Source: Trichodesmium erythraeum IMS101
GTDB taxonomy: Bacteria > Cyanobacteriota > Cyanobacteriia > Cyanobacteriales > Microcoleaceae
Assembly: GCF_000014265.1 (NCBI RefSeq)
Contig: NC_008312.1
Span: forward strand, 3,420,001 to 3,452,000
Length of the DNA: 32,000 nt
Direction: 5' to 3'
Made by a program: the position numbers and the translations under genes. Numbering within the stretch: the first letter of the stretch is position 1; every line of letters starts with the position of its first letter. The notes under the pieces are model-generated. The model had not been told where the DNA came from, did no database searches, and saw nothing but the letters and a program-made list of their open reading frames with translations. Below are positions 8,783 to 31,824 of the stretch, in pieces.

Positions 8783-9437
8783 TGTTTTTTAAGAAGGAAG
8801 AAATAAGAAATAAGAAAGAAAATCCTTGACTTTTTCTTATCAGTCAACTATATTTTACTTTATTGAGATACTGCTTCATAAAACCTATATAAAACGTCAA
8901 AATAAGTAATATTTTAATGTTTATTTTCTGCTTTTACGGTTACTATCGACATCAGGAATTCTATTTTTAAGGTATTGACGGTCAAGCTAACCGAATTTAT
9001 CGCTCCTTATACTTGCATTCTTATCTTAATTAATAGATAGATATACATTCAGAGCAGTTTTGAGGTGAGGTAATATCTCTATTGATAACAACCCTAGCCA
9101 CCCTAAACGATGAGTGCTAACATTTGCTAACAATGCACAGCAAGAGCAATTGGCTTTGGGGGTATCTCCCAATATCTACAAGAAAAACTGTAGACCCTTT
9201 TTAGACCCTTTTAAACACTTACATCACCTTGATTATAAGCTAAACAAAACTTTTAAACATGCGAATAGTCACTTAATCAGGAAGTCGGTTAATTAGTGGC
9301 CTGGTTTTACACCACAAGTTACTCTATTTATCAGATTTTAGCATTTATACAACTTGATTAGTATTACTGTATCAATATATACAAGCTTATATCAATAAAT
9401 ATCAGTCAACCAACAATAGTTAATTAACCCAATTCCA

Positions 9438-9612
9438 TTCTACTAACCTTACCCCAACTTATATAAGCGTAATTGCATAAGCTTTGAAACTAGCTTCGGT
9501 ATTTCACCCTTATGCCCATTGATCCCAGTCTTCAACTTATCTTCAAGACCAGGCTTTAAAACGCAAGGAAGCTCAAGCTACTTATTCATATATAGTTTTC
9601 GCTCATTACCCA
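9438..9612 (-). mobile_element. Remnant of an IS200/IS605-family element: extreme 3' end of tnpB plus downstream omega-RNA/right-end-like region, with no intact ORF
   Basis: The reverse complement aligns by eye at roughly 75-85% with 31587-31824. Examples are ..GAGCGAAAACTATATATGAATAAGTAG.. and ..GTGAAATACCGAAGCTAGTTTCAAAGCTTATGCAATT.., the latter against GTGAAATATTGAAGCTAGCTCTCAAGCTTATGCAATT. This copy lacks about 70 bp that encode the zinc-finger segment in the other copy. Confidence 0.55.
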
Positions 9613-10008
9613 TACAGCTACAATATTCCTATGTATTTGTAAGTTTAAATAAGTATAGTTAGTTTTTATTTAACTATCAAGTCTCATCCCAGGAGAGAAG
9701 CTAGATTGGTAAATGAATTATAGCATTGTCTAGCTCTTGACTAGGTTTAGGTCATAAACACCTTTCATCTCGTGGAGCTAAACATTTTGATTAGCCTTTA
9801 AGAACTCTATTTAGACATTCCCAATAATATTGAAACGTCCCTTTAGATTCTACCTTGATCACTCCCTTTCTTTGTTTCCCAGCTACATACTCCAACACTT
9901 TAATAACTGGTTGCTTGTTTAGGTCCATAAGTCCATTAATGATTAGTGGCTAATTGTTCTTGATCATTAACAACTAACCACTAACCCTTGATATCTCAAA
10001 GCAACATA

Positions 10009-11541
<1,533 letters not shown>

Positions 11542-11711
11542 TCAAGCTTTTTACAAAAAATTATCGGGTATTATATAGCAGTTGCCAGGGCAGTTCGGAC
11601 ATTCTTACTCCTCTGAAATATAGTCACAGCAATAACTTAATGGATAATTGCCATTCCCACCTACTAAATTTACCTTAATTAGGGGTAAAGAGGGCGGACT
11701 TTTTACTTCTG

Positions 11712-12260
11712 CTATAGTGTTTTGAGGCTGATGCCAATACGACGCAGTTGTCCTTGCAGACTAGAGTCAATTATCTGAGAACCTATTTTGATAATGACAC
11801 CACCCAATATACTTGGGTCGACTTTAGTTTCTATTTCCACTTCCCTTGCACTAGTCATTGATTTGACTCGTTCACGGATTGTATTTTTTTGGTTTTCATT
11901 CAATTCTACTGTGGAGGTCACTTCTGCTAAAACAGTTTGATTGAGTTCACGCAATAGTGCTAAGTATTGTTTCCCTATCTGTTCTAGAAAAGTAATCCGA
12001 CCTTTATCAATTAGTAGCATTAAGAAATTACGCATTAAGGGATCAACCTGTTCTCCCAGCATGCGTTTTACCACTGCTTTTTTATCCTCTTGCTTAATAA
12101 CTGGATTTCCCACAAATTGCTTAAATTCCGGGGATTCATCCAGAATATTAATCAGGCTCCGCACATCTTCGGCAAATTTATCAGTCAAGTCTTTTGATTG
12201 AGCCAAGGACATCAGAGCTGCTGCATAAGGTTCTACAATTTCACCAGCTATTACACTCAT
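11712..12260 (-). CDS. atpH: F0F1 ATP synthase subunit delta (OSCP; atpD in cyanobacterial nomenclature)
   Basis: 182 aa. It sits between b and alpha. Its start overlaps the stop of the b gene (ATGA at 12257-12260). The N-terminus ..[13 protein letters not shown].. is typical of delta. Confidence 0.9.
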
Positions 12261-12790
12261 AATTGACCTCCTAATCGCCCTATGCTACTATCTATTAATT
12301 GTTGCTGGGCATTCTCATCTAAAGTTTCTTGCAATTGAGATTCTACTTTTGCCAATGCTTTAGATGCCAGAATTGAGCGCAGTTGGGCAATAGCCTTATC
12401 TTTTTCAGAATCCATTTCTTGGTTAGCAGCTGTCTTCATCCGCTCAATATCTTGTTCGGCCTGAAGTTCAATTCTTTGTTTAACCTCCTGAGCCCTTGTT
12501 TCAGCAAGAGCTAGAATTTTTTCTGCCTCTGCTTGAGCTTGGGTCAAATTTTGTTGTTGCTCTGCTAATGCTGTTGCTGCTTCTTGTTGACGCTGTTCTG
12601 CTTCTTTTATTGCCTGTTCAATAGTAGCTCGTCTTTCACTCAGGATCTTCCCGATAAAGCCTGGAGCAAAATACAGCAAAACTGCAATTAGAATTCCTAA
12701 ATTAATTAGGTTTGTATCTAAAAGATCCAGGTTTAGACCAAAACCTTTTTCAGCACTAGCTTCTGTCGCTAGTAATAAAACATTTACCAT
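12257..12790 (-). CDS. atpF: F0F1 ATP synthase subunit b
   Basis: 177 aa. It has a single N-terminal TM helix ([20 protein letters not shown]) followed by a long charged coiled coil. Its position in the operon follows b'. Confidence 0.9.
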
Positions 12791-12881
12791 TATATTCTGT
12801 GATAGTCAGCCTTTAATTATCTTGTTAGATGTTGAGCTTAGTTATCTAATCATTCAACTCTTCAACCTGGATTTTTTTTGG

Positions 12882-13367
12882 CTATCTGACCAATTCTGGT
12901 CCTAATAGTTTTTCTAGAATTTGGCGACTTAGAGAGTCTACCTGTTCTTCTAACTGTTCCAAAGCTACTTCCTTTTGCTTTTCTATTTCTTGAGCTGCTT
13001 GTTCTCTTTTCACTTGTGCTTCTTTTTGAGCAACAGCCACTTTTGTAGCTGCTATTTTTTCAGCTTCTGCTTGAGCCGCAACAATAACAACCTGAGATTT
13101 CTGACGGGTTTGTGCGAACTCTTGCTCGTATTGTTCAGCTAATTGTTTAGCCTTTGCCAAACGTTCTTTTGCTTTTACTTGATTTTCGCGAATATAATCT
13201 GCACGAGAATCTATAGCTTTACCCAGAGGCTTATAAAAAATTTTGTCCAAAACAAAAGCCAGAAGTAAAAACTGAATTGCCATTAGTGGTAGAGTTGCGT
13301 TGATGTCAAACAAACCACCCTTTTCTGCTACTTCTTCAACAGCTAGTACAATTGTCAAATTTATCAT
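12882..13367 (-). CDS. F0F1 ATP synthase subunit b' (atpG in cyanobacterial nomenclature)
   Basis: 161 aa. It has the N-terminal motif [31 protein letters not shown] typical of cyanobacterial/chloroplast b', followed by a coiled coil. It lies between the c and b genes. Confidence 0.9.
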
Positions 13368-13473
13368 TTTCTCTAATTTTTGGTGGTTCCCATAGTTTTT
13401 GATTTAAAGATTTTAGATTTTCAATCTCCTAAATTAAAAATCTAAAATCTCTACTTTCTATAAATCAGGGTTT

Positions 13474-13755
<282 letters not shown>

Positions 13756-13932
13756 TTATAAATATATTGATTACACTGTAGTGCAATCAACTACATAATG
13801 TTGACATCCTTCCCGGCCTTTAGGCACAGGAATTATTTGCGAGCCTTAACTCCTCGGCTCACCCCACTAAGAGCTTAGAATAACAGATTTTGAGTTTTTT
13901 TTAGCAAGTTTTTTTACTACCTACTTATTCTC

Positions 13933-14682
13933 TTAATCGTGATCTTCTGCGCCGTGCTCTTCTAAGGCTTCTCCAATATAGTTAGCAGCCAGGGTAGCAA
14001 AAATTAGCGCCTGAATAGCACTTAAGAATAGACCCAAAACCATTAGTGGTAGGGGGATAAACAGAGGTACTAACAGAACTAGTACTCCTACTACCAATTC
14101 ATCCGCGAGAATATTACCAAATAAACGGAAGCTCAGGGATAAAGGCTTAGTAAAATCTTCTATGATTTTAAATGGAACCATAAAAGGTACTGGCTCGGCA
14201 TAACCTGCAAAATATCCTAAGCCTTTTTTACTGATACCTGCATAAAAATATGCTATGGAAGTCAGTAGTGCTAATGCCACTGTAGTATTAATGTCACTTG
14301 TGGGGGCCGCTAGTTCTCCTGAAGGTAGTTCTATTACTTTCCAAGGGACTAACGCTCCTGACCAATTTGACACAAATATAAATAAGAACAACGTACCAAT
14401 AAATGGTACCCAAGGGCGATAATCTTTTTCACCTATCTGGTCTTTTGTCAGACTGCGGATAAACTCCAGGACAGACTCCATGAAATTTTGCATCCCACTA
14501 GGAATTCGCTGCACATTGAGTGAGGATATAAAAGCAGCCAAAAGTATCAAGGCAATTACAAACCAGGATGTGAGTAAAATTTGCCCATGTATTTTGAAAC
14601 TACCTAGCTCCCAGTAAAAATGCTGGCCAACCTCCAACTCAGCCAGAGGTAAAAAGTTAATAGTGTTTAAAACATCTAGCAT
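13933..14682 (-). CDS. atpB: F0F1 ATP synthase subunit a (atpI in cyanobacterial nomenclature)
   Basis: 249 aa and polytopic. It carries the conserved ..[17 protein letters not shown].. block containing the essential Arg. Confidence 0.95.
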
Positions 14683-14741
14683 TTTGGTTCTCAGGCTTCC
14701 AGATTTATATCAAAGTGTGGATTAATTAATATTCATAAGAC

Positions 14742-15182
14742 TTATGAGTTAGGCATAAGTGATGTTCGCAGTACATATATTATTAAGGCTGCTTTGTAAG
14801 TCAGAAATCCTAGGAAAATCGGTAAAATTTTTAGCTCATTTAACTGAGCTGCTAATATTATTAACCCAACAAGTATAGCTAGTCTTGTTTTGCTCAGACT
14901 TCCTTTTTCTCTACCAATACGTTCAACATCTTTAGCCAACATTCTTAAGTAAACCACACTTGTAGTTGCTCCTATCAAATAGTTTAGAGCTATGTTTAAG
15001 GAGTAAAAAACCCAGACAAAGATAAATATTATACCTGTAATTGTAAGGGTAATTACATATAATTCCTCTTGTAGTTTGTAATACTCTTTCATTGAAGGAT
15101 TTGGCTCTTCTGGTAGAGCACTAACTTCTGAAGTATTACTTTCAACAGTTATTGATTCTGGTGATGTATCAGATGTATTCAC
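14742..15182 (-). CDS. atpI: ATP synthase protein I (atp1), first gene of the operon; start uncertain
   Basis: This is a small hydrophobic protein directly upstream of subunit a, in the standard cyanobacterial atp1 position. The ORF-track start is GTG. An in-frame ATG (MKEYYKLQ..) 30 codons downstream would give a more typical 116 aa. Confidence 0.7.
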
Positions 15183-15884
15183 AAAAAATTAGATACTAAT
15201 CACAAGTGGTAGGCTTTTTTTTATATGCCAATAGTCATCATACCATGTTGAAGCCAGCATACCTAACATATATTGAATTGATATATATCTATCCATAAGT
15301 AATAAGGCATCCTTCTTTAGTCATAAGTCTGAGACTAGGAGAACCATAACATAACTTAGTTGACAATTTAGGAATTTAAGGGTTTTGAATGCCCTAGTTA
15401 TTCATTCGTTATGATTATGCTCAAGTATATCAACTCGCTTTTTTGCTGCTGACATAAGTTTGAATTAATGTAACCACTAGCTAGTCAAGTAAGAATAAAG
15501 CAGTCACATAATAATAGCTTATGCTTTATCAATATCTTCCTTAACATAAAAAGTGGACATTATAGATAAGTTATTTACTTACCATTGAATAGATATTTTG
15601 AAAGAGTAAATGTATTTAACAATACCTTTTTTTCCTGATGAGTCAAACTAATTCCCATTCATTAATGCTGTACTTAGGTAAGACTTCAGTTATTAAGTAA
15701 TTAAGAAAAAAAGAATAACTTTTTTACTAACTTGATCATAATTAATTTGTCTGTTCAATGCAAAGTCCCTAATCCCCTGATCAAAGTGTGAGGTTGAAAA
15801 GTTATGGATAAATGTTTAAGTTTTGGGCTTCCCTTGCCCCCTACTCTCCTATCTAATACCGTTTCACGAAAGTCAAAAGTCAAA

Positions 15885-15954
15885 ACTCAAAATTTAAAAG
15901 TTAGATTGTATATGCTCAAAACTTTGATTAAACAGTAATTTCAGGAAATTATTT
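15885..15954 (+). repeat. Dispersed ~70-bp repeat (module X), inverted relative to 25739-25808
   Basis: TTAAAAGTTAGATTGTATATGCTCAAAACTTTGATTAAACAGTAATTTCAGGAAATTATTT aligns with the reverse complement of 25739-25808 (TTAAAAGTAAGACTTTATCGGCTCAAAACTTTAACACATTCAGTAATTTCAGGAAATTATTT). The alignment includes perfect 22-nt and 11-nt blocks. Confidence 0.75.
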
Positions 15955-16076
15955 GACATTTAAAGTTGTAAACTATTTGTGACATCTTAAAAGTGAACTA
16001 TTATTAGAAAAGGTTTTTAGGAGTTCCTCATCATAGATATCTTTTAAGGGGGTAAGGGGAGAGTTAACTGCTGAGT

Positions 16077-17288
16077 TTAGTGATAACCGGAGTTAGGACT
16101 TAGCAAAATTAAAAGTCGGGACTGAAGCGATCGCACAGTTTCTACTCCTACTGGTACATCTGTTAATATCTCCCCTACGGTGGACTGAGATTTGTTGCTT
16201 ACTCCTTGAGTACAAGCTTCTAGAAATTCATATTCTGGCCTTGACAAATTTACTAATCTATAGTCACCATCAAAAATATTTTCACTAGGCCATCCCTGGA
16301 TACAAGGACTTAATTCAGGTATTGCTGCCTTGAGCAACTCATCATGAGACCAATCAACCTTTTGTAGAGGTGGTCTTCCCAAAAAAAACTCGTAATGACT
16401 AATTTGAGGGTCTAATAACTCAATCAAACGATAACGTTCTTGATCATTCAAATCAATTGCTCTTTCTATCAATTCGGGAGATTTTCCCAGAAGTCGCCCT
16501 AAGTCCCAGTATTCCCAATTGGAAAATCCCAGAAACTCCAAACCAGATGCTTCTATTAACTCAAACAAGGTATCAATATTGTAGTGAATTTCCTGGGGAT
16601 GAACATACATATCGGCAAAACACTCATCTTTTTTATTTTCCCAAGACCATCTTTCTTTTTCATACTTGACAATACGGTTATTCTCTGGTAAAGAAGCAAA
16701 AAGTTGACGTCCGATTTTCACTCCATCTTTGTAGTTGCCACGTTCATTACCTTGAAGGATGGCGATCGCCTGCTGCATGAGTCTAATTTCCCAGCGCCCC
16801 AACTCTGCATAAACAAAAATGTGCATAATCCCACCAGGGGCCAACTTCAAAGCGAGATTTTGGATACCTCGAATTGGATCTGGTAAATGGTGCAGTACCC
16901 CTACACAATTAATAAACTTAAACTCTCCCTCTAGTCTACCTACATCATATATGCTGAGATGATGAAAATCAACGCGGGAAGCTCCGGAACGACTACACCT
17001 TTCCTTTGCCACCCGTAAAGCACCACTACTTAAATCAATTCCTACTACAGAAGCTTGAGGGTTAAGGTGAACCAAATAATCTGTACTAGAACCTGTACCA
17101 CAACCTGCATCTAAAATTCTAATATCTTGTTTTTTCGGTTTTTGACCAGTGCAAAAACTATAAGCTACTGGCCAACTCCAACGCCAGTTGTATCCAGGAG
17201 GCGCTTCATCTGTCAAAGGGTCTGGAGGAAATGGAAAGGTATCATAGAGTCCCTCAACAGCAGAACTAATATTAATTCTATCTTTCAT
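16077..17288 (-). CDS. Class I SAM-dependent methyltransferase (403 aa) with a C-terminal extension of unknown function
   Basis: Motif I is ILDAGCGTGSS. Post-I is VVGIDLS. It also has the ..INCVGVLHHLPDP.. and ..LAPGGIMHIFVY.. motifs. Confidence 0.85.
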   Translation of the reverse strand: MKDRINISSAVEGLYDTFPFPPDPLTDEAPPGYNWRWSWPVAYSFCTGQKPKKQDIRILDAGCGTGSSTDYLVHLNPQASVVGIDLSSGALRVAKERCSRSGASRVDFHHLSIYDVGRLEGEFKFINCVGVLHHLPDPIRGIQNLALKLAPGGIMHIFVYAELGRWEIRLMQQAIAILQGNERGNYKDGVKIGRQLFASLPENNRIVKYEKERWSWENKKDECFADMYVHPQEIHYNIDTLFELIEASGLEFLGFSNWEYWDLGRLLGKSPELIERAIDLNDQERYRLIELLDPQISHYEFFLGRPPLQKVDWSHDELLKAAIPELSPCIQGWPSENIFDGDYRLVNLSRPEYEFLEACTQGVSNKSQSTVGEILTDVPVGVETVRSLQSRLLILLSPNSGYH

Positions 17289-17465
17289 CTCGTTTTGGGT
17301 TTAATAGTTACTAAATATATTTGCTAAAAATTATAGTGCTATATTTGTAATTATTTAAATGAAAAAATTTGCAAGTTGTTGTTAATTTTGCTGTGTTATT
17401 CTAGAAAAATATTATTACAAAGATACAATGATTGCCTCAATTATTAATATTAAGTTATAGGTAAC

Positions 17466-18727
17466 ATGACAAATTCTTTCTCGCCTCTAGTACAAGATGC
17501 GACAAAAGCTCAAAATGAAAGTATAAGAACTATTGTGGGGAAATTGGATGATAAAGAGGTATATATTCCTGGTTATCAAAGAGACTCTGAACAATGGGAT
17601 GATCGTAAACAATCTCTATTTATAGAATCTTTACTAAACAATCTCACCATACCAGCTTTCTTTTTTTTGTGAAGGTGAAGACTTGAATGATGAGGTAGTC
17701 GACGGTCAACAACGTCTTAGCACTATCTGGAAATTTTATAAAAATGATTTAATTATGAGTGCTAGTCATAAGGTTTCTTATATAGCACCTCTATCAATCT
17801 TATACAGTGGTAAAAAAATTAAGGATTTAGATAAAAAACTACAAAAAATATTCTTGAATTATCCTCTGACCATTATTTATCTTCCTAAAGACTTAAAACT
17901 AGAAACAAAACTGGAAATATTCAGAAGAATAAATGAAGGTGGTACACCTCTTTCTGGTCAAGATATTAGGTTAGCTTACTATAGTAAATCAAAATCAGTT
18001 ACTTTGATTAGATTAGTAGGTATTCACAAAAATACTACTACTTTCAATGATGAGGATAGTGAAGATGATGAAGATAATAAGAAGCCATTTCAAAGAATAG
18101 TTGAAATGGCTGAAAAAAAAAGAGCTATCTAACCCTTAGTAGAATTTTACTAATGCTAGAGAAAAGTGGTACGAATGGTGGAAAGAACAAAAGATATCCA
18201 AAGGTCAAGCACCTTCTTTGATGTTTTTATGGTATCTAGTTTGTCTTGATAGACAAAAGCTTAAAGATTTATTGCAGAATCCAACTCATCTTAAAATTAG
18301 ATTTGGAGGGTCAACAGAGAATGCTTTAGATATTTACTGCGCATAACTTAAACATCAAGACTTAAATCAAAATGAAATACCATTAGTTTCATCTTTCCAT
18401 AAAATTCAAAATCACTACTTTACAAAATTTGCGGAATGGATAGAGGTGATTTTAACTAGAAAATTACTAGGAATTAGCGTTAATAAATATAAACAGTTAG
18501 CTTTGTTTATTGCTGGAGCAGTTGAGTTAGATATATCACCAACAGAATTATCTGACGAACAATGGAATGTTACCGGAAATTTTATTAGAAGTTCTAGAAA
18601 GGTTGGTAAAGAATTATTAGATGGTGATAATTATCCAGAACAAAAGGGGCTATGGATTGAAAAAAGCGGGCAATTTAAACAGTGCGATGCCACAGTTGAA
18701 ATTGTCAGAAATATTTTTAACAAGTAG
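17466..18727 (+). pseudogene. DUF262 (ParB/Srx-fold, GmrSD-like N-terminal domain) protein gene, disrupted at four or more positions
   Basis: The N-terminus IPGYQRDSEQW..LFIESLLNNLTIPAFFF runs into a T8 run (17661-17668). The frame must shift there to continue ..CEGEDLNDEVVDGQQRLSTIWKFY (the DGQQR hallmark). A second break falls around an A9 run (18113-18121) followed by TAG TAG. There is an in-frame TAA at 18344-18346. The frame then continues to 18727. Confidence 0.7.
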
Positions 18728-18821
18728 AATTTTTATGAGAGAAATTCCTGAAGGTTTATAGCTATGTAATTCCCAGGCAATAAATTTTTCTATGAGTTGG
18801 AAAAAAGCTTATTTCAGATGA

Positions 18822-18999
18822 AATTTTAATTCAAAATTGGAAGGGTATATTTGTCAGATTTGCCAAAAGTTATTTCTAAGTTCTAAGGGTTTTAAAGAAT
18901 TTAGGGCTGATCATATTCACCCTTTCAGCAAAGGTGGTTTAAAAACTTGGAATAATATGCATTTATTGTAATGGCAAAAAGAGTAACACGTTAAAGTAG
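18822..18999 (+). pseudogene. HNH endonuclease-motif remnant (frameshifted)
   Basis: The translation is ..YICQICQKLFLSSKGFKEFRADHIHPFSKGGLKTWNNMHLL*. After a 1-nt shift it continues ..CNGKKSNTLK*. Together these give the C-x2-C ... H ... N ... C-N-x2-K pattern of HNH nucleases. Confidence 0.55.
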
Positions 19000-19370
19000 T
19001 AAAAGCTATATATATTTCCGTTTTAAGTACGTATAGCTATCAGAAATAACTCACGAAAAATATAAAAATAGATAAAAACTATGACACTGTTACCTCTGCC
19101 GGTTGGTACTTGTTGCTTAATTCCAATAGTTTTTTTCACGACTATACTGAAACTTCCTATTTAATATAGGGTTTTTGTCTAAGTCAGATTAAAAAAAATA
19201 TTAGTCGGTGTACATAAATTATGAGTTAATTTTTCAGTAATAATTCAGAACTTTAGCAGTCAGCTTGAGCACTTTTGCCTGCTCTAGCTGCGCAAAAAAG
19301 ATGAAGTTGAGCTTAACATCTATTTCCTGTTGGACTTTTAATTCTTCTTAGAGGCTAATTCTCCTTCTGG

Positions 19371-19405
19371 CTGATAGCTGATAGTTGATAGCTAAATACT
19401 AAATG
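19371..19405. repeat. Short heptanucleotide tandem array (STRR-like)
   Basis: Five consecutive 7-mers read CTGATAG CTGATAG TTGATAG CTAAATA CTAAATG. Heptamer tandem repeats are a known feature of filamentous cyanobacterial genomes. Confidence 0.6.
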
Positions 19406-19857
19406 CTTAAATTTTTCATGGCAAAAAAAATAAGTTCAATGCTTTATCTTGGATAGCTATTGCTGATTAACTGTGGCCAGAGAATATTTGTTACTCCAAA
19501 TTTTATGTTTAGTAATTTTGATGAGATAAATAATTTTTAAGTTAGTAGATTTTCTCTAGTGACCGTAAATATACCTGGCCTTGAATAAGGAATGAAAAAA
19601 AATATTTGGCATAGGTATTTCAAGCTAGATGTTAAGGATGGCTGGTAATGTTTTGCTACGGGACATGATAGACGCAGTTTATCTTCCGGAGGCTCACGGA
19701 CAATTGACATGGTCTAATATCCTAATATTATCAAGAATTACTTAACAAAATTTATTATTTTTTTTAAAATAAAAGACTATAAGTCTATAAAATAAAAATC
19801 TGTAAGGTTTTTCACAAAAGCAGGTAGTTTAAGTAGGTAAGTTTTGAAATTTGTCGC

Positions 19858-19945
19858 TATGTAAAAAAATGTAAATTTACCTCAAATCAACTGTGTGGAG
19901 GAGCTTGGAGTCAGTACATAAATCTTAATATAGCTAAGTTTTTTC
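19858..19945 (+). repeat. Dispersed ~90-bp repeat (module Y), inverted relative to 25821-25911
   Basis: It contains a perfect 16-nt core TTACCTCAAATCAACT. Flanking similarity to the reverse complement of 25821-25911 is about 70-75% over ~90 bp (e.g. ..CTTAATATAG.. and ..GGAGT.AGT..). Confidence 0.65.
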
Positions 19946-20573
19946 ATGCCTATCTACTTAGCTCAAAAAATTTTACCTGAAAAACTAGATAGGAAAAACT
20001 ATAAAGTAAAAATAGCAACAATAGCTAGTTTATTAGGCCTGAAGATTTAGATCAAGTTACTGTTATGAAAACCCAAGTTTAATAGTAAAAAAAATGATAC
20101 CAATAAATTAGGGTTTTTAGGCGGTGCGATACCTAAATCTTAAAGTAAACTTAGGCGTGTCAATACTTTAGCATAATACCTAATCACAAATAAGGTCTAA
20201 ATTTCTGTAAAGATTATTGGGAAAATATCAAAATTAAAAATTTGATGTCAACTTACAGTTCTTTAACGGTATAATTTAATTACTAGTGGTGTTATTTAAA
20301 GGGGAAAGAACACATAAAGCTTATTTAAGTACATAAAACCACCTAAATAATCCATAAACTCTAAAAGATTACAGGAGCTAGACAATAAATCAAATCTTCT
20401 GTAAAAGTGTTAAAGCCAAAAAAATTATCAATTATTGATTTGGTTTTAATATTAGCTTTTATGGCATAAAATATATTAAGGTAAATCTTAAAAAACTATG
20501 CTTTTATTCAAAGTAAAGCTTGTTTAAAATGCCATAAAAACTGCAGCTAAATAATCGAATCGGGAAGCTATAA

Positions 20574-22712
<2,139 letters not shown>

Positions 22713-22815
22713 GAAAACTATACTTTTATTCAAAATAGAGGGTCTTTGAAGTCTTATAAAAATTAAAAGCCAAAATGTCTGAATAGAAGCCGTAAAAACT
22801 TAAAATAGGAACTGA

Positions 22816-25560
<2,745 letters not shown>

Positions 25561-25597
25561 GCTATTGGTGATTTTTTTGGTTGGAATTGTTACTGTT

Positions 25598-25633
25598 CCC
25601 CTGCTATAGATTTTTATAGTAGGGGGTTTTTTT
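25598..25633 (+). terminator. Rho-independent terminator of apcE
   Basis: CCCCTGCTATA (25598-25608) pairs with ATAGTAGGGG (25616-25625), with one mismatch. A T7 run follows (25627-25633), 38 nt after the apcE stop. Confidence 0.8.
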
Positions 25634-25738
25634 GATAAGTTTAGGGAGTGGGTTTTATAGGTCAACTGAAAATTTACGGGCATTAATGCTAATTTAATTA
25701 ACTGAGATTACACTAATGATCTCAATAGAGCATAAGTT

Positions 25739-25911
25739 AAATAATTTCCTGAAATTACTGAATGTGTTAAAGTTTTGAGCCGATAAAGTCTTACTTTTAA
25801 TTTTTAACTAGTGAGTACGTACAAAAAAGCTGCACTATATTAAGTTTGATCAACTAACTCCGAAATATTCCATAGAGTTGATTTGAGGTAAGTTGATATT
25901 TTGTTATGTAA
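25739..25911 (-). repeat. Composite ~170-bp dispersed repeat (modules Y+X on the minus strand)
   Basis: 25821-25911 is the inverted partner of 19858-19945. 25739-25808 is the inverted partner of 15885-15954. The sequence after 19945 also shows faint X-like similarity (..GCTCAAAA..). Confidence 0.65.
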
Positions 25912-26067
25912 GGAGGTTGCTGAACAAGGATCACGATAAATTCTACCATGCATTGCTGAAATTCGCGATCAAATTTGTTCTTGTCGCAGTCGATCTAAAT
26001 TAAAAGTTAGTTTACTGCTAAAAATTCAGTTTCAGGGTAGTGTTGCTAGTGAATCAGTAAAATACTA

Positions 26068-26480
26068 GCAGCATTGAAGAAATTTCAAGGGTTAATTGAT
26101 GATTTGAAGTTCGGCTGATCAAATATTGATACTGAATATCAAGTTTTAATTGACTAACAGCTGCTCGTTCGCTTAACTGTAGATGAGGTGCTTAAGAAAA
26201 TTAAATGACTGTTTAATAATGGTAATTTGGCGGAAGCTCAGGGTTATTTACAAGTTGGGGATGATGCACGAATACAAGTTATGCAAGGATGAGGAGAATA
26301 GTGGGTTGATCAAATTGAATATGTAGAACAAAGGCTAACAGGTTTGCATTGCCTGGAGCTTGAGGTTATAGTTCAAGAACTACACAAGGGAAAGGGGAGG
26401 AATATTTTCCTTTTCTCTTATAGGAGAGGGGTCGGGGGAGAGGTCTTCCGGGTTGCTCAAATTTACCTACAATTGTTTTA
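26068..26480 (+). pseudogene. Possible decayed gene upstream of the GTPase cluster
   Basis: A single frame reads ..QQLKKFQGLIDDLKFG*..TEYQVLID*QLLVRLTVDEVLKKIK*LFNNGNLAEAQGYLQVGDDARIQVMQG*GE*WVDQIEYVEQRLTGLHCLELEVIVQELHKGK.. The text is protein-like and interrupted by five stops. I recognise no family. Confidence 0.25.
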
Positions 26481-26502
26481 GTTAATTTTATAAGTATTTT
26501 TT

Positions 26503-26595
26503 ATGAGTAAAGTTATTGTGATAGGCGATCGCCAAGTTGGTCAAACAAATATTCTTCAAAGTTTGGCCCAAATTTATGATAGGAGGTGGGAATGA
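26503..26595 (+). pseudogene. 30-codon ORF paralogous to the 5' end of the downstream GTPase gene (P-loop stub with Lys-to-Gln in Walker A)
   Basis: MSKVIVIGDRQVGQTNILQSLAQIYDRRWE* aligns with MSVIVIGDRAVGKTHMGLALAQPIGEWRV of the next gene. The nucleotide similarity includes the same HIP1 site (26525-26532 against 26611-26618). Its TGA overlaps the next ATG (ATGA at 26592-26595). Confidence 0.6.
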
Positions 26596-27344
26596 GTGTG
26601 ATAGTGATAGGCGATCGCGCCGTGGGCAAAACTCACATGGGATTGGCCTTGGCCCAGCCAATTGGTGAATGGCGGGTTAAGATCATAGACCCATCTTATA
26701 AGACGCTGAGAGAAAAACTTCAAAAAGTAGATACTGGTGATATGGTTCCAACTAGAGACATGATAAGAAGACCAGTCAGGCTAGAAGTTCAGTTAAATCA
26801 CCGCAAAATTATAGAATCAGTTTGGGTAGATACTTCTGGGGAAATCTGGGAAACTGAATGGCAGGAAAAAAATGAAGATGATTGGAATGACTTTAAGGAA
26901 AAAATCGGTCAAAATATAGGCATCATTTTGTTATTACCTCCCTATAAAGAAATAGTGCTCAATCATTTGCTCAAGAAGGCATCCTCAGGTATGACTTTAG
27001 ATCCAGACCAATTAATGAATGCTCAAGGGTGGTCTAATAATTTAGAAGATTGGTTAAGGTTTTTCAATCAATATTGTAGTCGAGTAGATAACATTGCTAT
27101 TTGCCTACATAAAGCTGATTTATTCTGTGAAAGTCTTGACGATGAAGCAATAAAAATGCAGGGACATCCCGTCGAGCGTCAAAAACAAGTACGCAATAGA
27201 TATTTTGCTGTTGCTAAAGAAGTAATAAACAGAAATAACCGAGAGGTAAGGCCTTTTCAGTTTTTTATTACTAGTATTAGCAATTGTACTTTATTAGAAG
27301 CACCCTGGCTTTATTTAAGTCCTTTTATTCTCCATTATCGTTAA
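26592..27344 (+). CDS. Small Ras-superfamily-like P-loop GTPase (about 250 aa) with an atypical G4 motif
   Basis: G1 is GDRAVGKT, G3 is VDTSGE (DxxG), G4 is HKAD (in place of NKxD), and a possible G5 is ITSIS. The AGGAGG Shine-Dalgarno (26581-26586) lies 5 nt before the ATG at 26592. The ORF track begins at an in-frame GTG at 26586. Confidence 0.7.
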   Translation: MSVIVIGDRAVGKTHMGLALAQPIGEWRVKIIDPSYKTLREKLQKVDTGDMVPTRDMIRRPVRLEVQLNHRKIIESVWVDTSGEIWETEWQEKNEDDWNDFKEKIGQNIGIILLLPPYKEIVLNHLLKKASSGMTLDPDQLMNAQGWSNNLEDWLRFFNQYCSRVDNIAICLHKADLFCESLDDEAIKMQGHPVERQKQVRNRYFAVAKEVINRNNREVRPFQFFITSISNCTLLEAPWLYLSPFILHYR

Positions 27345-27348
27345 AAGT

Positions 27349-27399
27349 ATGACTCAGATTAGTATTATTGGTACTAGAGCTTGTGGCAAGACAACCTAA
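27349..27399 (+). pseudogene. Third P-loop N-terminal stub (MTQISIIGTRACGKTT*), out of frame with the following ORF
   Basis: The ATG lies 4 nt after the GTPase stop. The Walker A-like GTRACGKT is followed by TAA at 27397-27399. The downstream ORF continues in the -1 frame with ..LSLGAAPNY.., which suggests a 1-nt indel near 27390-27400. Confidence 0.5.
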
Positions 27400-27902
27400 G
27401 TTTAGGAGCTGCTCCTAACTATGCAGTAGCTTTACGAGCAGGTGCTGGTTTTGAAATGACGGCAGAAATGGAAGAAAGATTTGAACAAGAACAAGACAAT
27501 TTGACTAGTCCTAAATTACCTCGTATCAGAAATGTCTATCGCCTTCAACTAGTTACTGAAGACGATCCACATACTCCTATTGAAGAAAACTTATCTATTA
27601 AACTGCCATATCATACTAAAGGTAAACCAATAATTATTGGTGGTGATGGTAGTGATTATACTGATGTAGACATTTACTTGCCAGGTATTGCTGATAGATG
27701 TGCCTCTTTATCTGTAAATAACCGTGTCGTTGAAATTCAATGTTGGGCTACAGGAAAAGTTCAAATTAATCGAACTTTAATGGAAAGAAGGGGAAAAAAG
27801 TCACTCCGCCACGGTCAAATTATAACCTTGTTACGAAACGATAAACCAGACAAATATTACTGTTTTTGCTTCTATGACACTTTATATGATCCGCAAAGCT
27901 AA
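27381..27902 (+). CDS. FHA-like domain protein (non-canonical); true start uncertain (frameshifted fusion with the 27349 stub, or an internal ATG at 27456)
   Basis: The C-terminal half KPIIIGGDGSDYTDVDIYLPGIADRCASLSVNNRVVEIQCWATGKVQINRTLMERRGKKSLRHGQIITL follows the spacing of the FHA pattern (IGR...D..L....vSR.HA.i......D..S.NGT.vNg......L..GD.I.lG). The pThr-binding Arg/Ser/His/Asn positions are substituted. The ORF-track start is TTG. Confidence 0.45.
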   Translation: MWQDNLSLGAAPNYAVALRAGAGFEMTAEMEERFEQEQDNLTSPKLPRIRNVYRLQLVTEDDPHTPIEENLSIKLPYHTKGKPIIIGGDGSDYTDVDIYLPGIADRCASLSVNNRVVEIQCWATGKVQINRTLMERRGKKSLRHGQIITLLRNDKPDKYYCFCFYDTLYDPQS

Positions 27903-29256
27903 ACTGTTAGCAATAGCAGTTTTTTCTGCTATATTACCATTCGGTTGTGCCGCCATACCTGAAAATATAATTAGTCAAGATGACTGTAGTAATACTAAAG
28001 AAAATCGTCAAAAATGCCTGGAAATTACTCGTATAATTACAGCAGAAAAAAATACAGTCAAAATGCGGATTAAAGTTTATAATAAAGCAGGAAACTTTAA
28101 TCCCAATTTACAAGAATCAGATTTTTCTGTAGAAACCATTAGTGAATTTGGTAGCAAAAAAACTATTAAACCAACTGTTATTCTCCCTACTGATACTAGG
28201 GCAAAAACTACTCCCGCTGACATAATTATTATGTTAGATATGAGTGGGAGTATGAAGTTTAGAGATTCTAGTCCAGGTAGAAGACGCATTAAATTTAAGG
28301 GTGCTATTAATGCTATATACAAATTTATTGATGCCGCTAATGATAAGCCAAATTTAACTGTTAGAATAGGTTTAGCACCTTTCGGTAAAGGAGGTAACCA
28401 GTTTAAAGTAAGTAATAAAAGTTTAGATGCCAATTTTTACCCATCTAACAGTGAGAAGCTAAAGGAAAAAATAGAAGAGTTAGCCAATCAAGAACTCAGC
28501 GCTTCTACTAATTTATATCAGCCACTAGAAACTGCTGTTAAATATTTGATAAATTCAGTTAATTCGACCTCCGATAGTAATAATAAAACTGATGATTCTC
28601 AATCAAAACAGTTAGTGGTAATTGTGTTATCTGATGGGTTTCATAATCACGATCGCGACACAGAAGAAATACAATTTGAAAGATTAAAAAATATTCTCCA
28701 GCCTCAAGATTCACAAATGCCAAAGGTTAAAGTTCACACATTAGGTTATGGTCAATCTCTAACAGAAATATACAATAGTTCAAGATGTAATATTGAATTT
28801 ACTGACGCACAATTAACAATAGATGAAATAATTATTAAAGACAAAGTTATCAATAAAATTATTGATAATTGTAAACATCCAAGAATAAGGATTGACCAAT
28901 TAATCGTAGATCAACCACGTTTAAGAGAAATTGCTGATTCAACGGGAGGTATTCATCAATTTCCAGATAATGCTGAAGAGGTAGCTCAGAGTTTAATTAA
29001 ATTCCTAGAAAGTCTACAAGAATATGAATTAGAATATAAGCAACCAGATGGCGATCGGGCAACTAAATATCAAGTCAAAGTTTTAGTCAAAGGTCTTACT
29101 TCTAATGCCCAAGATTACCGTATTACTAACATTGGCTACGAACCTTTAGAATTCAAAACTAGGGGATTATTAATATTGGTAGCTCTAGTTATTTTTGGTA
29201 TTATAGGAGTATATCCCTTCATCGAATGGAGTAAAAAATTACGGGTAGATAGATAA
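27874..29256 (+). CDS. von Willebrand factor A (vWA) domain protein with lipoprotein-type signal peptide and C-terminal transmembrane anchor
   Basis: The N-terminus is MIRKAKLLAIAVFSAILPFGCAA, a signal with a lipobox-like Cys; an alternative ATG lies at 27886. The MIDAS residues are complete: IIIMLDMSGSM (DxSxS), ..ASTNLYQPLE (Thr) and ..VVIVLSDGFHN (Asp). The end-of-vWA motif is ..IADSTGGIHQF.. The C-terminal helix is LLILVALVIFGIIGVYPFI. It overlaps the preceding ORF by 17-29 nt. Confidence 0.85.
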   Translation: MTLYMIRKAKLLAIAVFSAILPFGCAAIPENIISQDDCSNTKENRQKCLEITRIITAEKNTVKMRIKVYNKAGNFNPNLQESDFSVETISEFGSKKTIKPTVILPTDTRAKTTPADIIIMLDMSGSMKFRDSSPGRRRIKFKGAINAIYKFIDAANDKPNLTVRIGLAPFGKGGNQFKVSNKSLDANFYPSNSEKLKEKIEELANQELSASTNLYQPLETAVKYLINSVNSTSDSNNKTDDSQSKQLVVIVLSDGFHNHDRDTEEIQFERLKNILQPQDSQMPKVKVHTLGYGQSLTEIYNSSRCNIEFTDAQLTIDEIIIKDKVINKIIDNCKHPRIRIDQLIVDQPRLREIADSTGGIHQFPDNAEEVAQSLIKFLESLQEYELEYKQPDGDRATKYQVKVLVKGLTSNAQDYRITNIGYEPLEFKTRGLLILVALVIFGIIGVYPFIEWSKKLRVDR

Positions 29257-29259
29257 ATT

Positions 29260-29646
29260 ATGATAGAATATACTTTAATCTTAAAAATACCCAATCTCGG
29301 TCATAAATAGATTTACTATTCAGTGAATCTAACTGGTAGTGATATTAATTATCCAGAAGATTATTTTCATAATCAAACTGATAGAGGACAAACTAATAGA
29401 TTAAATTTGCGTCAGGAAATAGAAAAGCAATAATTACGACAAGTAAATAAGGAGCAATTTAACCGAATTATTAATTAATGGAATTACGGTATTAAAAATG
29501 GTAAAAGTAATTTCATAAATGTTATTATATCCTTGGAGCTTTTATCTTTAGAAAATAATAATAATAAAGTTTCGGTTTGCTCGAATACAACCTCGACTAT
29601 TGAGAAAACTTTTACATCTGCTAATTACAACAATTCCCCAAGATAA
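29260..29646 (+). pseudogene. Possible decayed fifth gene of the cluster
   Basis: The ATG lies 4 nt after the vWA stop. One frame runs for 129 codons with only three internal stops (29308, 29431, 29476) in sequence so AT-rich that roughly ten would be expected. I recognise no family. Confidence 0.25.
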
Positions 29647-29871
29647 CTCAAACAAATCCAGGGGTTATGCCTAAGCTTAAAAACCTTTTTTATAACCAAA
29701 AATACAAAAAAATGTTAACCTAACATCGAGGAAATTTTGATTCCAAATTCATAAAATATGATGCCTATATTTGAAGCTAAATATAATAACAATTAAGCCT
29801 GTTTTTTATGGATTTATTTAAAATAAAATTAGTTTTAAAAAATCATAAATAAAATATTATAATCAAAAAAT

Positions 29872-31476
29872 ATGGAACTTCCTTACAATAAATGCCAACG
29901 AGAACTACAAGAACTTTTACAAGCTCAATATCCCTTGATTTTCTTACGTTCATCAGAAGAAATTCGAGCAATTAATTGCATAATAGCTGCCTATCGTTCT
30001 CTATGTAATAATAATATTATTGAAGGAGAACTAGCTGAATGGAGAAGTATTAATGGATTTTATAAATTAACAACAGAAAACAATTGGCAAAGCACAAATT
30101 ATGCACCACAACCAAACACCGATCCAATAATTTATGCCCTTGATTTTTTACAGACGCAATTACAAAATCAAGCCAGGAAAAACATAGACCAGCAATACAC
30201 CTATATTCTACCAGACTGGTCAAAACTCATAGAACCAACTTTTTATTTAACTACCCGCAAACTCAAAGAATTAGTCCTCGCGATCGCACAAACAAAACCC
30301 AGACCCAGAATGAACTTAATAATAGTAGGTTCTGATTGGTCAATTCCTACAAGTTTGCGTAATTATATTCACATATTAGACCTGCCCCTACCCATTGGAG
30401 AAGAACTTTATCAAAATATCTTTAAACTTGCTGTTACTAAATACAATTTAGCAGAAAATAGAGCCAAAGACCTTGCAGAAAAAGCTCAAGGAATGAACTT
30501 TCAAGCAGTAGCACAAACCGCAAAATTAATCACAACAAAAAAGCTGTGGCAACAACCAGAAGAAGCTTCCAAACTATTATTAGAAGTCAAAAAACAAGAA
30601 ATTGAAAAAATCGGCATCTTAGATTATTACGAACCACTAGGAGAAGGACTCCAAGAAGTTGGTGGTTTAGAAAACATCAAAACTTGGGTCAAAGAACGTT
30701 ATCCTTGGTTTGAACAAGATGCAGACCCAGATATGCGCCCCCGCGCTCTTTTACTTGAAGGGTTTCCTGGATGTGGAAAATCTTTTATTGCCAGAGCGAT
30801 CGCTATTGAATGGCGCGTTCCTCAAATTAACTTTGAAATTAGCAGATTACAATCTCAATGGGTAGGGGAGTCCGAAAGCAATACATATCAAGCTCTCAGA
30901 GCAATTGAAGCTTCCGCTCCCAACATTCTATTTATGGATGAAATCGAAAAAGCTTTTGCAGGAGTTGGTGGTGATAGTAGCGGTACTACTACCCGACAGT
31001 TTGGCACATTCCTAACTTGGCTTAATGACCACAAAGAACCAATTTTTTTTATTGCTACATCCAATGATCGTTCCATGCTACCACCAGAAATATTTCGTGC
31101 AGGGCGTTTTGATGAAACTTTTATTGTTATGCCTCCCACAACTAAAGAACGCTACGAAATTATTCAGAAACGAATCAAAGCTCGTCAACTCAAGCCAATT
31201 TCTGATTCACTTTTAGAATATTTAGTAAAAAACACTCTCGGATTTTCAGGAGCTGAACTTGATAAATTAGTTAAAGAAACCAAAATTTTAACTGGACTTA
31301 ATCAAGAACCAACTGAAACTAATTGGCAAAAAGCTCTGAATAAAATTAATCCACAATATAAAAATCCTAGAATGAAAGAGCTTTTAAAGTCTTACATAAA
31401 TTTAATTGTAGAAGGTAATGTACAATCAGCATCCGAAGTTGAAGAAGGCTTTTTTGAGGAACTATTATCAGAATAA
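29872..31476 (+). CDS. Classic-clade AAA+ ATPase (534 aa) with an ~270-aa N-terminal domain lacking Walker motifs
   Basis: Walker A is GFPGCGKS and Walker B is ILFMDEIEKAF. Sensor-1 is IATSND. The second region of homology with arginine fingers is PPEIFRAGRFDETFIV. I see no P-loop in the N-terminal region (YPLIFLRSSEEIRAI...). Confidence 0.9.
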   Translation: MELPYNKCQRELQELLQAQYPLIFLRSSEEIRAINCIIAAYRSLCNNNIIEGELAEWRSINGFYKLTTENNWQSTNYAPQPNTDPIIYALDFLQTQLQNQARKNIDQQYTYILPDWSKLIEPTFYLTTRKLKELVLAIAQTKPRPRMNLIIVGSDWSIPTSLRNYIHILDLPLPIGEELYQNIFKLAVTKYNLAENRAKDLAEKAQGMNFQAVAQTAKLITTKKLWQQPEEASKLLLEVKKQEIEKIGILDYYEPLGEGLQEVGGLENIKTWVKERYPWFEQDADPDMRPRALLLEGFPGCGKSFIARAIAIEWRVPQINFEISRLQSQWVGESESNTYQALRAIEASAPNILFMDEIEKAFAGVGGDSSGTTTRQFGTFLTWLNDHKEPIFFIATSNDRSMLPPEIFRAGRFDETFIVMPPTTKERYEIIQKRIKARQLKPISDSLLEYLVKNTLGFSGAELDKLVKETKILTGLNQEPTETNWQKALNKINPQYKNPRMKELLKSYINLIVEGNVQSASEVEEGFFEELLSE

Positions 31477-31581: not shown

Positions 31582-31824
31582 ATGCCATTGAGCGAGAAAA
31601 CTTATGAATGTATTACTTGTGATTTGACTATAGACAGAGACTTTAATGCTGATATCAACGAGCAAAAAGTATATGAATAAGTAGTTTTAGCTAACTTAGG
31701 ATTTTGTGGCCTGGGTCTTATATCAGTTACAGACTGTGCTTAGTGGCATCAGCGTGAAATATTGAAGCTAGCTCTCAAGCTTATGCAATTCCTGCATAGG
31801 TAAATTTGGGAAAGCTTAATAGAA
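31582..31824 (+). mobile_element. IS200/IS605-family remnant: C-terminal 32 codons of tnpB (zinc-finger/RuvC-III region) plus downstream omega-RNA/right-end-like sequence
   Basis: MPLSEKTYECITCDLTIDRDFNADINEQKVYE* matches the TnpB C-terminal pattern C-x2-C ... DRD.NAA.NI. The downstream ~145 bp is homologous to the minus-strand copy at 9438-9612. No upstream tnpB body is present. Confidence 0.6.

Follow-up and report, generated by a model that had tools for sequence, protein, structure and literature searches.

A deletion remnant of a ten-gene GTPase, vWA, and AAA+ cluster in Trichodesmium erythraeum and its relatives in other cyanobacteria

What remains of the cluster in Trichodesmium erythraeum

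The stretch of the Trichodesmium erythraeum IMS101 genome analysed here (NC_008312.1, positions 3,420,001 to 3,452,000 of the forward strand, 32,000 nucleotides; hereafter the window) carries, downstream of the cyanobacterial ATP-synthase operon and apcE, a run of plus-strand genes and gene fragments that is the deletion remnant, a pseudogenised allele, of a ten-gene single-strand cluster. The intact order is C1, radical-SAM gene, GTPase A, GTPase B, GTPase C, BIG, TM-FHA, vWA, T183, and AAA+, where TM-FHA encodes a multi-transmembrane (TM) protein with an FHA-like domain. The closest complete relative, contig L087, has all ten genes ordered as in the window, with products of 384 (C1), 215 (radical SAM), 250 (GTPase A), 277 (GTPase B), 295 (GTPase C), 883 (BIG), 375 (TM-FHA), 460 (vWA), 183 (T183), and 534 (AAA+) amino acids. 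An earlier note on this DNA listed open reading frames (ORFs) and motifs, all of which we found where it had placed them; the compact GTPase/FHA/vWA/AAA+ module that it saw in them is actually the residue of the ten-gene cluster, and the intact version that it sought exists as L087.

Only three of the cluster genes are full length in the window. These encode GTPase A (26592–27344, 250 aa, with the motifs GDRAVGKT, DTSGE, and HKAD), a vWA protein with a metal-ion-dependent adhesion site (MIDAS; 27874–29256, 460 aa; PF00092 E 3.7e-7, PF13519 E 5e-7), and a classic-clade AAA+ ATPase of the Ycf46 family (29872–31476, 534 aa; PF00004 E 2e-25), and they share 74%, 88% (at the same length), and 95% protein identity, respectively, with their L087 counterparts. 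The intergenic gaps of 4 nt and 3 nt and an overlap of 29 nt are the same in L087.

The deletion is read directly from blastn alignment with L087, in which window positions 26472–27398 correspond to L087 2436–3362 and 27397–31497 to L087 8487–12607. At the junction (27397–27398), 5,124 bp (about 5.1 kb) are absent, and a four-way alignment places the joint at a 2-nt overlap, a microhomology that joins the two sides out of frame. This segment held the remainder of GTPase B, all of GTPase C and BIG, and approximately 214 codons at the start of the TM-FHA gene; codon 16 of GTPase B now runs, out of frame, into the TM-FHA gene at about its codon 215. On the left, the first 16 codons of GTPase B (MTQISIIGTRACGKTT) survive and are followed by a stop made by the deletion (27349–27399; residues 1–16 correspond to 27349–27396 at 88–94% identity by tblastn, in agreement with DNA alignment to L087 and to the sister contig L086). 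The stub ends at a TAA because the reading frames on either side of the junction differ. On the right, a C-terminal remnant of the multi-TM/FHA-like protein (27396–27902, about residues 215–375; tblastn 61–77% identity to residues 215 to the end) has neither a natural start nor any TM helix. The 173-aa ORF that can be drawn mechanically at 27381–27902 begins at a TTG at 27381, within the GTPase B stub and in a different frame from it, and what had been taken for a gene, a P-loop stub plus FHA-like ORF, is instead this deletion junction. The protein P0148 of Trichodesmium sp. St5_bin8, which is 95–97% identical to the FHA remnant, keeps the TM part.

The cluster is damaged at two further places. 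Upstream, a C1 pseudogene fragment (25910–26384, plus strand) aligns with L087 422–894 at 80% nucleotide identity and with C1 of L008, L010, and L012 at 30–46% identity by tblastn, and contains no long ORF. It is followed by 87 bp of filler (26385–26471) in place of 1,541 bp, which hold the 3' half of C1 together with the radical-SAM gene and a spacer; L087 895–2435 has no counterpart in the window by blastn, and a tblastn search of the window for the radical-SAM gene found no match. Downstream, T183 is a pseudogene (29260–29809, plus strand, aligned with L087 10326–10877) with the changes CAG>TAG, TCA>TAA, and GAA>TAA and 1-nt indels; three in-frame stops fall within 29260–29646, and tblastn matches it to residues 1–93 of the protein T185 at 59% identity. 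The C1 fragment, the deletion junction, and the T183 stops bear out the earlier impression that components of the cluster are decaying.

The order of the damage can be told from L086, a TARA scaffold that is 98.99% identical to window 25515–27398 and diverges exactly at 27398, beyond which it continues into an intact 277-aa GTPase B. The C1/radical-SAM loss is common to both sequences, and since L086 combines that loss with an intact GTPase B, the upstream loss is the older event and the 5.1-kb deletion is very recent. The same deleted arrangement was recovered from several sequencing runs, and each deletion-bearing contig is 100% identical to the window; these contigs therefore represent one clone or population. 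GTPase A, vWA, and AAA+ are probably intact just because the deletion is recent. Having lost GTPases B and C along with BIG, the membrane-spanning half of the FHA protein, and the products of the radical-SAM gene, C1, and T183, the apparatus cannot work as it does in its relatives, and in the window genome it is almost certainly non-functional. The AAA+ protein may keep an independent role there.

A 30-codon ORF (26503–26595, plus strand) precedes GTPase A and is a diverged copy of its 5' end. It resembles the first approximately 50 nt of GTPase A, encodes the P-loop-like motif GDRQVGQT, which lacks the lysine, and sits before the GTPase A Shine-Dalgarno sequence, with its TGA overlapping the GTPase A start codon (ATGA). 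The ORF is conserved at about 88% nucleotide identity; the intact cluster of L087 has it open (2467–2559), and in Okeania contig L014 it is interrupted (9688–9755). Decay specific to the window is ruled out for this stub by its being kept open in L087, and it may be a leader or upstream ORF.

The remnant and its mobile flanks form a variable island among core genes, which include a subtilase with DUF5942 (2919–4724), the ATP-synthase operon (7838–15182, with subunits a, b, b', delta, alpha, and gamma matched by Pfam), and a SAM-dependent methyltransferase (16077–17288), all on the minus strand. Two apcE-like ORFs stand in tandem at 20604–22712 (702 aa) and 22819–25560 (full-length ApcE, 913 aa); the first, 94% identical to the first approximately 707 residues of the second, is a truncated copy from a tandem duplication or else, possibly, an artefact of assembly. 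Directly 3' of apcE, a hairpin with a 13-bp stem and a T-run (25597–25626) separates this gene from the cluster remnant. No other intrinsic-terminator-like site in the region is convincing, and only this hairpin stands out in a promoter and terminator scan of the region whose counts were no higher than the shuffled expectation. Dispersed repeats flank the cluster at 25736–25906 and 31657–31824. They recur in the window at 15889–15957, 19862–19944, and 9438–9607 with 74–81% identity, and related short repeats are common to the window and an Okeania contig. A 32-codon ORF at 31582–31680 matches the C-terminal TNB/zinc-ribbon of TnpB/Cas12f-like proteins (E 6.9e-4, below the Pfam cutoff) and is a fragment of a transposon-associated gene. 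The window sequence is identical to NCBI assembly GCA_018457135.1, contig JAGGDU010000160.1.

The intact cluster and its linkage in other genomes

Homologues of GTPase A are few, and those with source names are cyanobacterial. Around them, in Okeania, Gomphosphaeria, Calothrix, and metagenomic contigs, lies the longer same-strand cluster. A scan of one genome per GTDB species yielded 69 loci, and all taxonomically labelled records among them are cyanobacterial, with a few unclassified metagenome-assembled genomes. Filamentous hosts predominate (Okeania, Trichodesmium, Hormoscilla, Moorena, Calothrix, Nostoc, Anabaena, and Scytonema), and colonial hosts comprise Pleurocapsa, Prochloron, Gomphosphaeria, and Chroococcopsis. 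The cluster is patchily distributed, and there are genomes that hold several copies. Linkage was counted at the 51 loci that have at least 8 kb downstream of GTPase A: GTPase B, GTPase C, and BIG follow it in 48, FHA is found in 36, and vWA in 33. Loci without FHA or vWA are mostly stretched Okeania or Trichodesmium clusters that reach beyond the fetched flank. The suspicion that these genes form one system is thus supported: in dozens of cyanobacterial genomes, their homologues lie side by side and keep this order.

Two subtypes can be distinguished. Subtype I, to which the window belongs, has C1 and the radical-SAM gene upstream and also the AAA+ gene, which is present in eight of nine radical-SAM-bearing loci. 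The AAA+ gene follows T183 in Gomphosphaeria, Aerosakkonema, Argonema, Cylindrospermum, Microcoleus, Dulcicalothrix, Trichormus, and L087, and precedes C1 in Calothrix, Aetokthonos, and Dolichospermum; as it is found at either end of the cluster, the linkage survives rearrangement. Subtype II carries extra downstream genes, including ARC6-like IMS proteins (8 of the 37 loci with sufficient flank). The linkage of the AAA+ gene was tested from the GTPase side and also from the AAA+ side, and it held in both directions: AAA+ homologues at 68% and 62% identity each lie at the 3' end of a complete cluster, in Dulcicalothrix and in Trichormus, and a homologue in Prochlorothrix (55% identity) is solitary. 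With homologues that are neighbours elsewhere and the AAA+ gene linked to them, the system hypothesis survives and the AAA+ gene stays in it for subtype I.

Further GTPase sequence occurs near the radical-SAM gene. In L008, a fourth paralogue resembling GTPases B and C (7118–7984, 288 aa, no Pfam match) lies between the radical-SAM gene and GTPase A, and just its last codons are left in the window (about 26470–26490) and in Okeania.

Several features mark the cluster as part of an accessory, changing island. GTPase A homologues occur on eight cyanobacterial plasmids, one of which, plasmid B of Trichormus variabilis ATCC 29413 (L093; NC_007411.1), devotes 13001–26744, about 14 kb of its 35.8 kb, to a subtype II cluster. 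Six of its cluster genes bear the annotation "hypothetical protein", namely those for the three GTPases, BIG, and the TM-FHA protein and one other; the rest are called vWA domain-containing, ARC6/PARC6 family, or serine hydrolase. The genes with which this cluster goes on downstream encode an ARC6/PARC6-family protein, a serine hydrolase, and two additional vWA proteins. Neighbours of the clusters include insertion sequence (IS) fragments of IS605 and IS66, PIN, Imm, and toxin–antitoxin (TA) genes, a Prim-Pol gene, and an NB-ARC/WD40 protein. Decay is common elsewhere as well: Okeania has GTPase C only in fragments, and GTPase B is split or truncated in L057, L060, and L089. The ratios of nonsynonymous to synonymous substitution rates (dN/dS) between the window and L087 are 0.72 for GTPase A, 0.48 for the FHA domain, 0.62 for vWA, and 0.21 for AAA+.

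In the closest comparison, between the window and L086, 14 of the 19 differences lie in GTPase A (window 26592–27344, L086 1078–1830; 753 nt), of which 9 are non-synonymous and 5 synonymous, and the other 5 lie in 1.1 kb of non-coding and pseudogene sequence on its flanks. The excess within GTPase A could reflect diversifying selection acting locally, or recombination.

The contigs L090 (1–4925), L091, and L092 represent the orthologous site, with an AAA+ gene that is 96.6% identical to that of the window from 7 nt before its ATG. In L090, the sole contig that reaches far enough downstream, AAA+ is followed by the same GFO_IDH_MocA gene as in the window. The FHA, vWA, and small-protein genes that precede AAA+ are only 33–40% identical to those of the window, and we interpret the site as a whole-cassette allelic replacement with a sharp breakpoint. 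The flanking repeats, the TnpB fragment, the plasmid copies, and the cassette swap agree with the earlier description of an accessory island between mobile debris. Plasmids, neighbours, decay, dN/dS, the cassette swap, and the protein fusions described below together suggest an accessory conflict-type system; none of them is functional proof.

Predicted proteins and likeness to known systems

An AlphaFold2 (AF2) model of GTPase A (pLDDT 87, pTM 0.87) retrieves Ras, Rab, Rho, and G-alpha GTPases as its top Foldseek matches in the PDB (prob 1.00, E from 6e-6), and its G1, G3 (D-T-x-G-E), and G4 ([NH]KAD) motifs are conserved in alignments of 17 and of 69 homologues. The GTPase assignment made earlier is upheld by the model. 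A sequence-profile search of the PDB with GTPase A matched P-loops and nothing further, and a search of a phage collection gave no match. GTPase A scores below the cutoff on the Pfam family DO-GTPase1 (E 5e-4, 19.8 bits) and aligns with GTPase B in its N-terminal half only (hhalign, 97% probability, E 9.5e-11). Sequence and model together indicate a genuine small TRAFAC/Ras-like GTPase that is a third, distant paralogue of a DO-GTPase pair. That pair is formed by GTPases B and C, which are homologous over their full lengths (hhalign E 2e-63), are adjacent in 48 of the 51 loci, and in intact relatives pass the 27-bit Pfam cutoffs of DO-GTPase1 (PF19975; GTPase B, 30.8–37.3 bits) and DO-GTPase2 (PF19993; GTPase C, 27.7–38.8 bits). 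All three paralogues conserve the D-x-x-G-E motif. GTPase A keeps [NH]KAD; where NKxD would be expected, GTPases B and C have a conserved [ST]KCE (L087 3313–5083; 57–61 homologues), and this pair may lack guanine specificity. Elsewhere, GTPase A-type domains are occasionally fused to Ser/Thr kinases, NACHT/AAA_35 STAND NTPases, and a CHAT peptidase (P0153, P0167, P0174, P0208, P0168, P0185, and P0181), domains that are typical of signalling and death-type systems in bacteria.

The AAA+ protein has the motifs GFPGCGKS, DEIEK, and, in the second region of homology, FRAGRFDE. It matches PF00004, its best NCBIfam matches are CDC48, FtsH, and PAN, and among its listed Pfam matches at E<=1 the MoxR-named family (AAA_3) is absent, with a lone weak match to AAA_5 (E 0.029); as the earlier note proposed, it is not of the MoxR clade. 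Its homologues carry the name ycf46, and it aligns with the canonical Ycf46 of about 500 aa at 35% identity over 91% coverage (E 1e-67). Identities within its own clade are 46–96%; most members are from filamentous cyanobacteria, and some are fused to pentapeptide, WD40, or TerB domains. It belongs to a separate paralogous clade of the Ycf46 family, with a genomic tie to the GTPase cluster. A profile search of PDB sequences with its N-domain of about 270 aa gave no match, no TM segment or signal sequence was predicted, and the protein is presumably cytoplasmic. The radical-SAM protein matches NrdG (TIGR02491, E 2.5e-29, 102 bits against a cutoff of 126 bits) and Fer4_12 (E 8e-33), and its CxxxCxxC motif is CPFRCSSC in L087. 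It is predicted to be NrdG/activase-like; no glycyl-radical partner was recognised among the cluster relatives.

The remaining proteins are mostly associated with the membrane. In C1 (about 384 aa), a long coiled coil comes after a TM helix, and BIG is a bitopic protein of about 600–1000 aa whose conserved N-domain belongs to no recognised family; sequence-profile searches of the PDB with C1 and with BIG gave nothing meaningful. In L087, from which alone the TM prediction was made, BIG has one TM helix (613–631) and then a PG_binding_1 domain (768–825), a domain that 5 of the 22 scanned BIG proteins carry, that of L087 included. This layout would place the N-domain of L087 BIG in the cytoplasm and its C-terminus in the periplasm. 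T183, the ninth gene of the intact cluster, encodes a small protein.

Five or six TM helices make up the membrane part of the TM-FHA protein, which also carries the invariant motif SPSYxVALRAGxGFE and a beta-rich C-domain of about 110 aa (30-sequence alignment) that the positive-inside rule suggests is cytoplasmic. A profile of this domain only (35 sequences) has the FHA domain of Ki-67 as its two best PDB matches (2aff and 1r21, E 0.0038 and 0.0045), and Pfam FHA (PF00498) matched 2 of 30 family members (best E 0.039). The FHA-like assignment thus stands on weak but concordant evidence, with Ki-67 as top PDB match at E 0.004. The family consensus is I-G-S...D-I-Y-I-P...A.L...L-K-H-N, in which the phosphothreonine-binding Arg (G-R), Ser (S-x-x-H), and Asn (N-G) are not conserved across the alignment.

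The vWA protein combines an N-terminal hydrophobic segment (11–29) with a C-terminal TM helix (432–450) and a basic tail, as found by a TM scan, and has a complete MIDAS (DMSGS...T...D), with PF00092 and PF13519 above their cutoffs. The MIDAS domain is predicted to face the periplasm and to be doubly anchored. Of the earlier description as a vWA protein with a lipoprotein-type signal, the vWA domain, MIDAS, and C-terminal TM helix hold; the lipoprotein reading is rejected, as the cysteine of the supposed lipobox is absent from the 88%-identical orthologue, and the N-terminal segment is better called a signal or an anchor.

The nearest known relatives are DO-GTPase systems, which are defined by DO-GTPases together with GAP1 and GASH or FNIII (Kaur, Burroughs, Iyer & Aravind 2020, eLife 9:e52696; PMC7159879) and were reported there as "nearly completely absent in cyanobacteria". 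The likeness, especially to the GAP1-N2 type, includes side-by-side paralogous TRAFAC GTPases with a Walker-B glutamate that pass the Pfam thresholds (GTPases B and C), a large conserved protein directly downstream of the GTPases (BIG, in the gene position of GAP1), membrane-proximal and peptidoglycan-binding modules with an extracellular, TM-anchored vWA, and occurrence in multicellular bacteria and in variable, mobile neighbourhoods. The adjacent GTPase pair is seen in the relatives and not in the window, where GTPases B and C are deleted. The clusters differ from DO-GTPase systems in having a third, distant GTPase paralogue (GTPase A), GTPases without zinc ribbons, and a dedicated multi-TM/FHA-like protein, and one subtype adds an NrdG-like radical-SAM protein and a Ycf46-like AAA+ protein. 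The family is best filed, on its sequences, as a putative cyanobacteria-specific variant of the DO-GTPase kind with incomplete membership, as GAP1, GASH, and FNIII were not detected; the earlier statement that no named system fits is narrowed to this extent.

Other systems resemble the cluster in parts. In the "FtsH ternary" subtype of MoxR-vWA systems, a classic-clade AAA+ protein occurs, sometimes with a radical-SAM effector (PMC7159879). Our cluster likewise pairs a vWA protein with an AAA+ protein, and both are enriched in multicellular bacteria; it differs in that its AAA+ protein is not of the MoxR clade and has a single AAA+ domain with an unrelated N-domain, and in that GTPases form its conserved core. 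With an extracytoplasmic vWA and a presumably cytoplasmic AAA+ protein, a direct MoxR-like chaperone pairing is unlikely. Ycf46 itself shares the name of the homologues, the architecture of an N-domain and one classic AAA+ module, and about 35% identity, whereas the AAA+ protein here belongs to a distinct clade linked to a GTPase cluster. Operons of vWA, FHA, Ser/Thr kinase, and PP2C genes (TerY-P-type triads) also unite vWA with FHA, and GTPase A is elsewhere fused to Ser/Thr kinases; however, our cluster has no kinase or phosphatase, and its FHA-like domain lacks the phosphothreonine-binding Arg, Ser, and Asn. The AAA+ core also scores against IetA/IteA models of the IetAS system (PADLOC E 1.9e-19; NCBIfam 54 bits), but 54 bits compare with a cutoff of 510, the generic AAA+ core alone aligns, and there is no IetS-like partner.

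A proposed envelope device and the alternatives

Tentatively, and with somewhat more doubt than conviction, we propose that the intact system is an envelope-spanning, nucleotide-gated surveillance or conflict device. In such a device, the periplasmic vWA MIDAS, together with the peptidoglycan-binding end of BIG where present, would engage the wall or a foreign ligand, and BIG and the TM-FHA protein would pass the signal through the membrane to the three GTPases, assembled in the cytoplasm, which could serve as a threshold switch that depends on nucleotide. Assembly, disassembly, remodelling, or resetting of the complex would fall to the Ycf46-like AAA+ protein. Candidate outputs are the product of the radical-SAM protein, the multi-TM protein, and the linked peptidases and hydrolases. 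A bolder form of the proposal, against which we would lean a little further, is a cyanobacteria-specific, envelope-spanning immune or programmed-death system, in which vWA/peptidoglycan sensors would act through three GTPases on a radical-SAM/membrane effector, the AAA+ gene would stay constant while the sensor cassette is swapped wholesale at a fixed Trichodesmium site, and the window would be an allele being lost.

Several observations weigh against our interpretation, either of the proteins as such a device or of the window as its wreck. No effector was recognised among the cluster components, and PADLOC-DB v2 gave no match for GTPase A, FHA, vWA, GTPase B, GTPase C, BIG, or T183, its residual output being sub-threshold noise from generic AAA+, viperin, and LeoBC models. 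The PG-binding, ARC6-like, and serine-hydrolase partners would equally fit a housekeeping role in the envelope. The AF2 model of the 173-aa FHA remnant is unusable (pLDDT 39 on a 6-sequence alignment). Against the Pfam library, which presumably includes GAP1 models, none of the 22 BIG proteins matched a GAP1-named family at E<=1, and PDB sequences gave nothing for BIG; nor was there a Pfam match to GASH or FNIII among the L059 and L087 components or among the listed flanking genes. With no GAP1, GASH, or FNIII match in BIG, the GTPases have to carry the DO-GTPase assignment by themselves. A literature search for the cluster, for its Pfam accessions, and for ycf46 with GTPase and vWA found no paper on the cluster in the library searched and the 2020 DO-GTPase paper as the one relevant report. 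As for the window, the deletion-bearing contigs are all identical, so selection after the deletion is not measurable, and GTPase A, vWA, and AAA+ could keep some activity.

Of the alternatives, the one that survives best, though we regard it as unlikely, is that the intact cluster is a housekeeping envelope apparatus for wall remodelling, septal or cell-cell functions, motility, or division that is switched by small GTPases. Ras-like GTPases control envelope machines in other bacteria, and such a role would suit the peptidoglycan-binding domain of BIG, the extracytoplasmic vWA, the ARC6-like IMS proteins and serine hydrolase of subtype II, and the restriction to filamentous and colonial cyanobacteria. 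It fits poorly with clusters that are patchy, multi-copy, plasmid-borne, and flanked by IS, TA, and STAND genes, with repeated pseudogenisation, fast protein evolution, and the replacement of a cassette at one chromosomal site, and with the rarity of the GTPase A family, which amounts to 99 representative clusters among 1.84 billion proteins.

That the AAA+ protein is an independent Ycf46 paralogue which merely adjoins the cluster seems to us improbable. Its 96.6% identity was kept while the adjacent cassette was swapped for one with 33–39% amino acid identity, its dN/dS of 0.21 is the lower, the 55%-identical Prochlorothrix homologue is solitary, most subtype II clusters have no AAA+ gene, and in the window it stands behind a gap of 225 bp that includes a promoter-like site, all of which would be expected of a separate gene. 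Against this stands its position beside the cluster in eight of nine radical-SAM-type loci, whether downstream of T183 or upstream of C1, the 62–68%-identical homologues at the 3' end of full clusters, and its start in L090 only 14 nt after the preceding cluster gene.

The idea that the four survivors (GTPase A, a soluble FHA-like fragment, vWA, and AAA+) constitute a functional, streamlined sensor/switch module is very improbable and already largely refuted, for although GTPase A, vWA, and AAA+ are full length with intact motifs, the tight spacing is kept, and the arrangement was recovered in several sequencing runs, the contigs concerned are 100% identical and represent one clone or population, the compact form occurs in no other genome among the 69 loci (GTPase B, GTPase C, and BIG lie beside GTPase A in 48 of 51), the junction is out of frame and leaves an FHA remnant without natural start or TM helices, C1, the radical-SAM gene, and T183 are destroyed too, and the 99%-identical sister contig keeps GTPase B.

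Taken as a whole, the wreck of a ten-gene cluster, with the damage history set out above and a putative envelope device in its intact relatives, is in our judgement quite probably the best explanation of the locus. For the annotation of the genome, this means that 27349–27902 and 29260–29809 are to be labelled pseudogenes. The wider interest lies in the family, which was previously undescribed, and in its cassette polymorphism. DO-GTPase systems are known from one comparative-genomics paper and were reported as near-absent in cyanobacteria; here a distinct cluster with three GTPases is traced to at least 69 species-level cyanobacterial genomes and 8 plasmids. The cluster provides the first genomic context for a Ycf46-family AAA+ paralogue and is a defined, testable gene set in tractable Nostocales strains. 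Marine Trichodesmium-like genomes offer a series of intact, partly decayed, deleted, and cassette-swapped versions, from which the gain, exchange, and loss of such systems can be followed.

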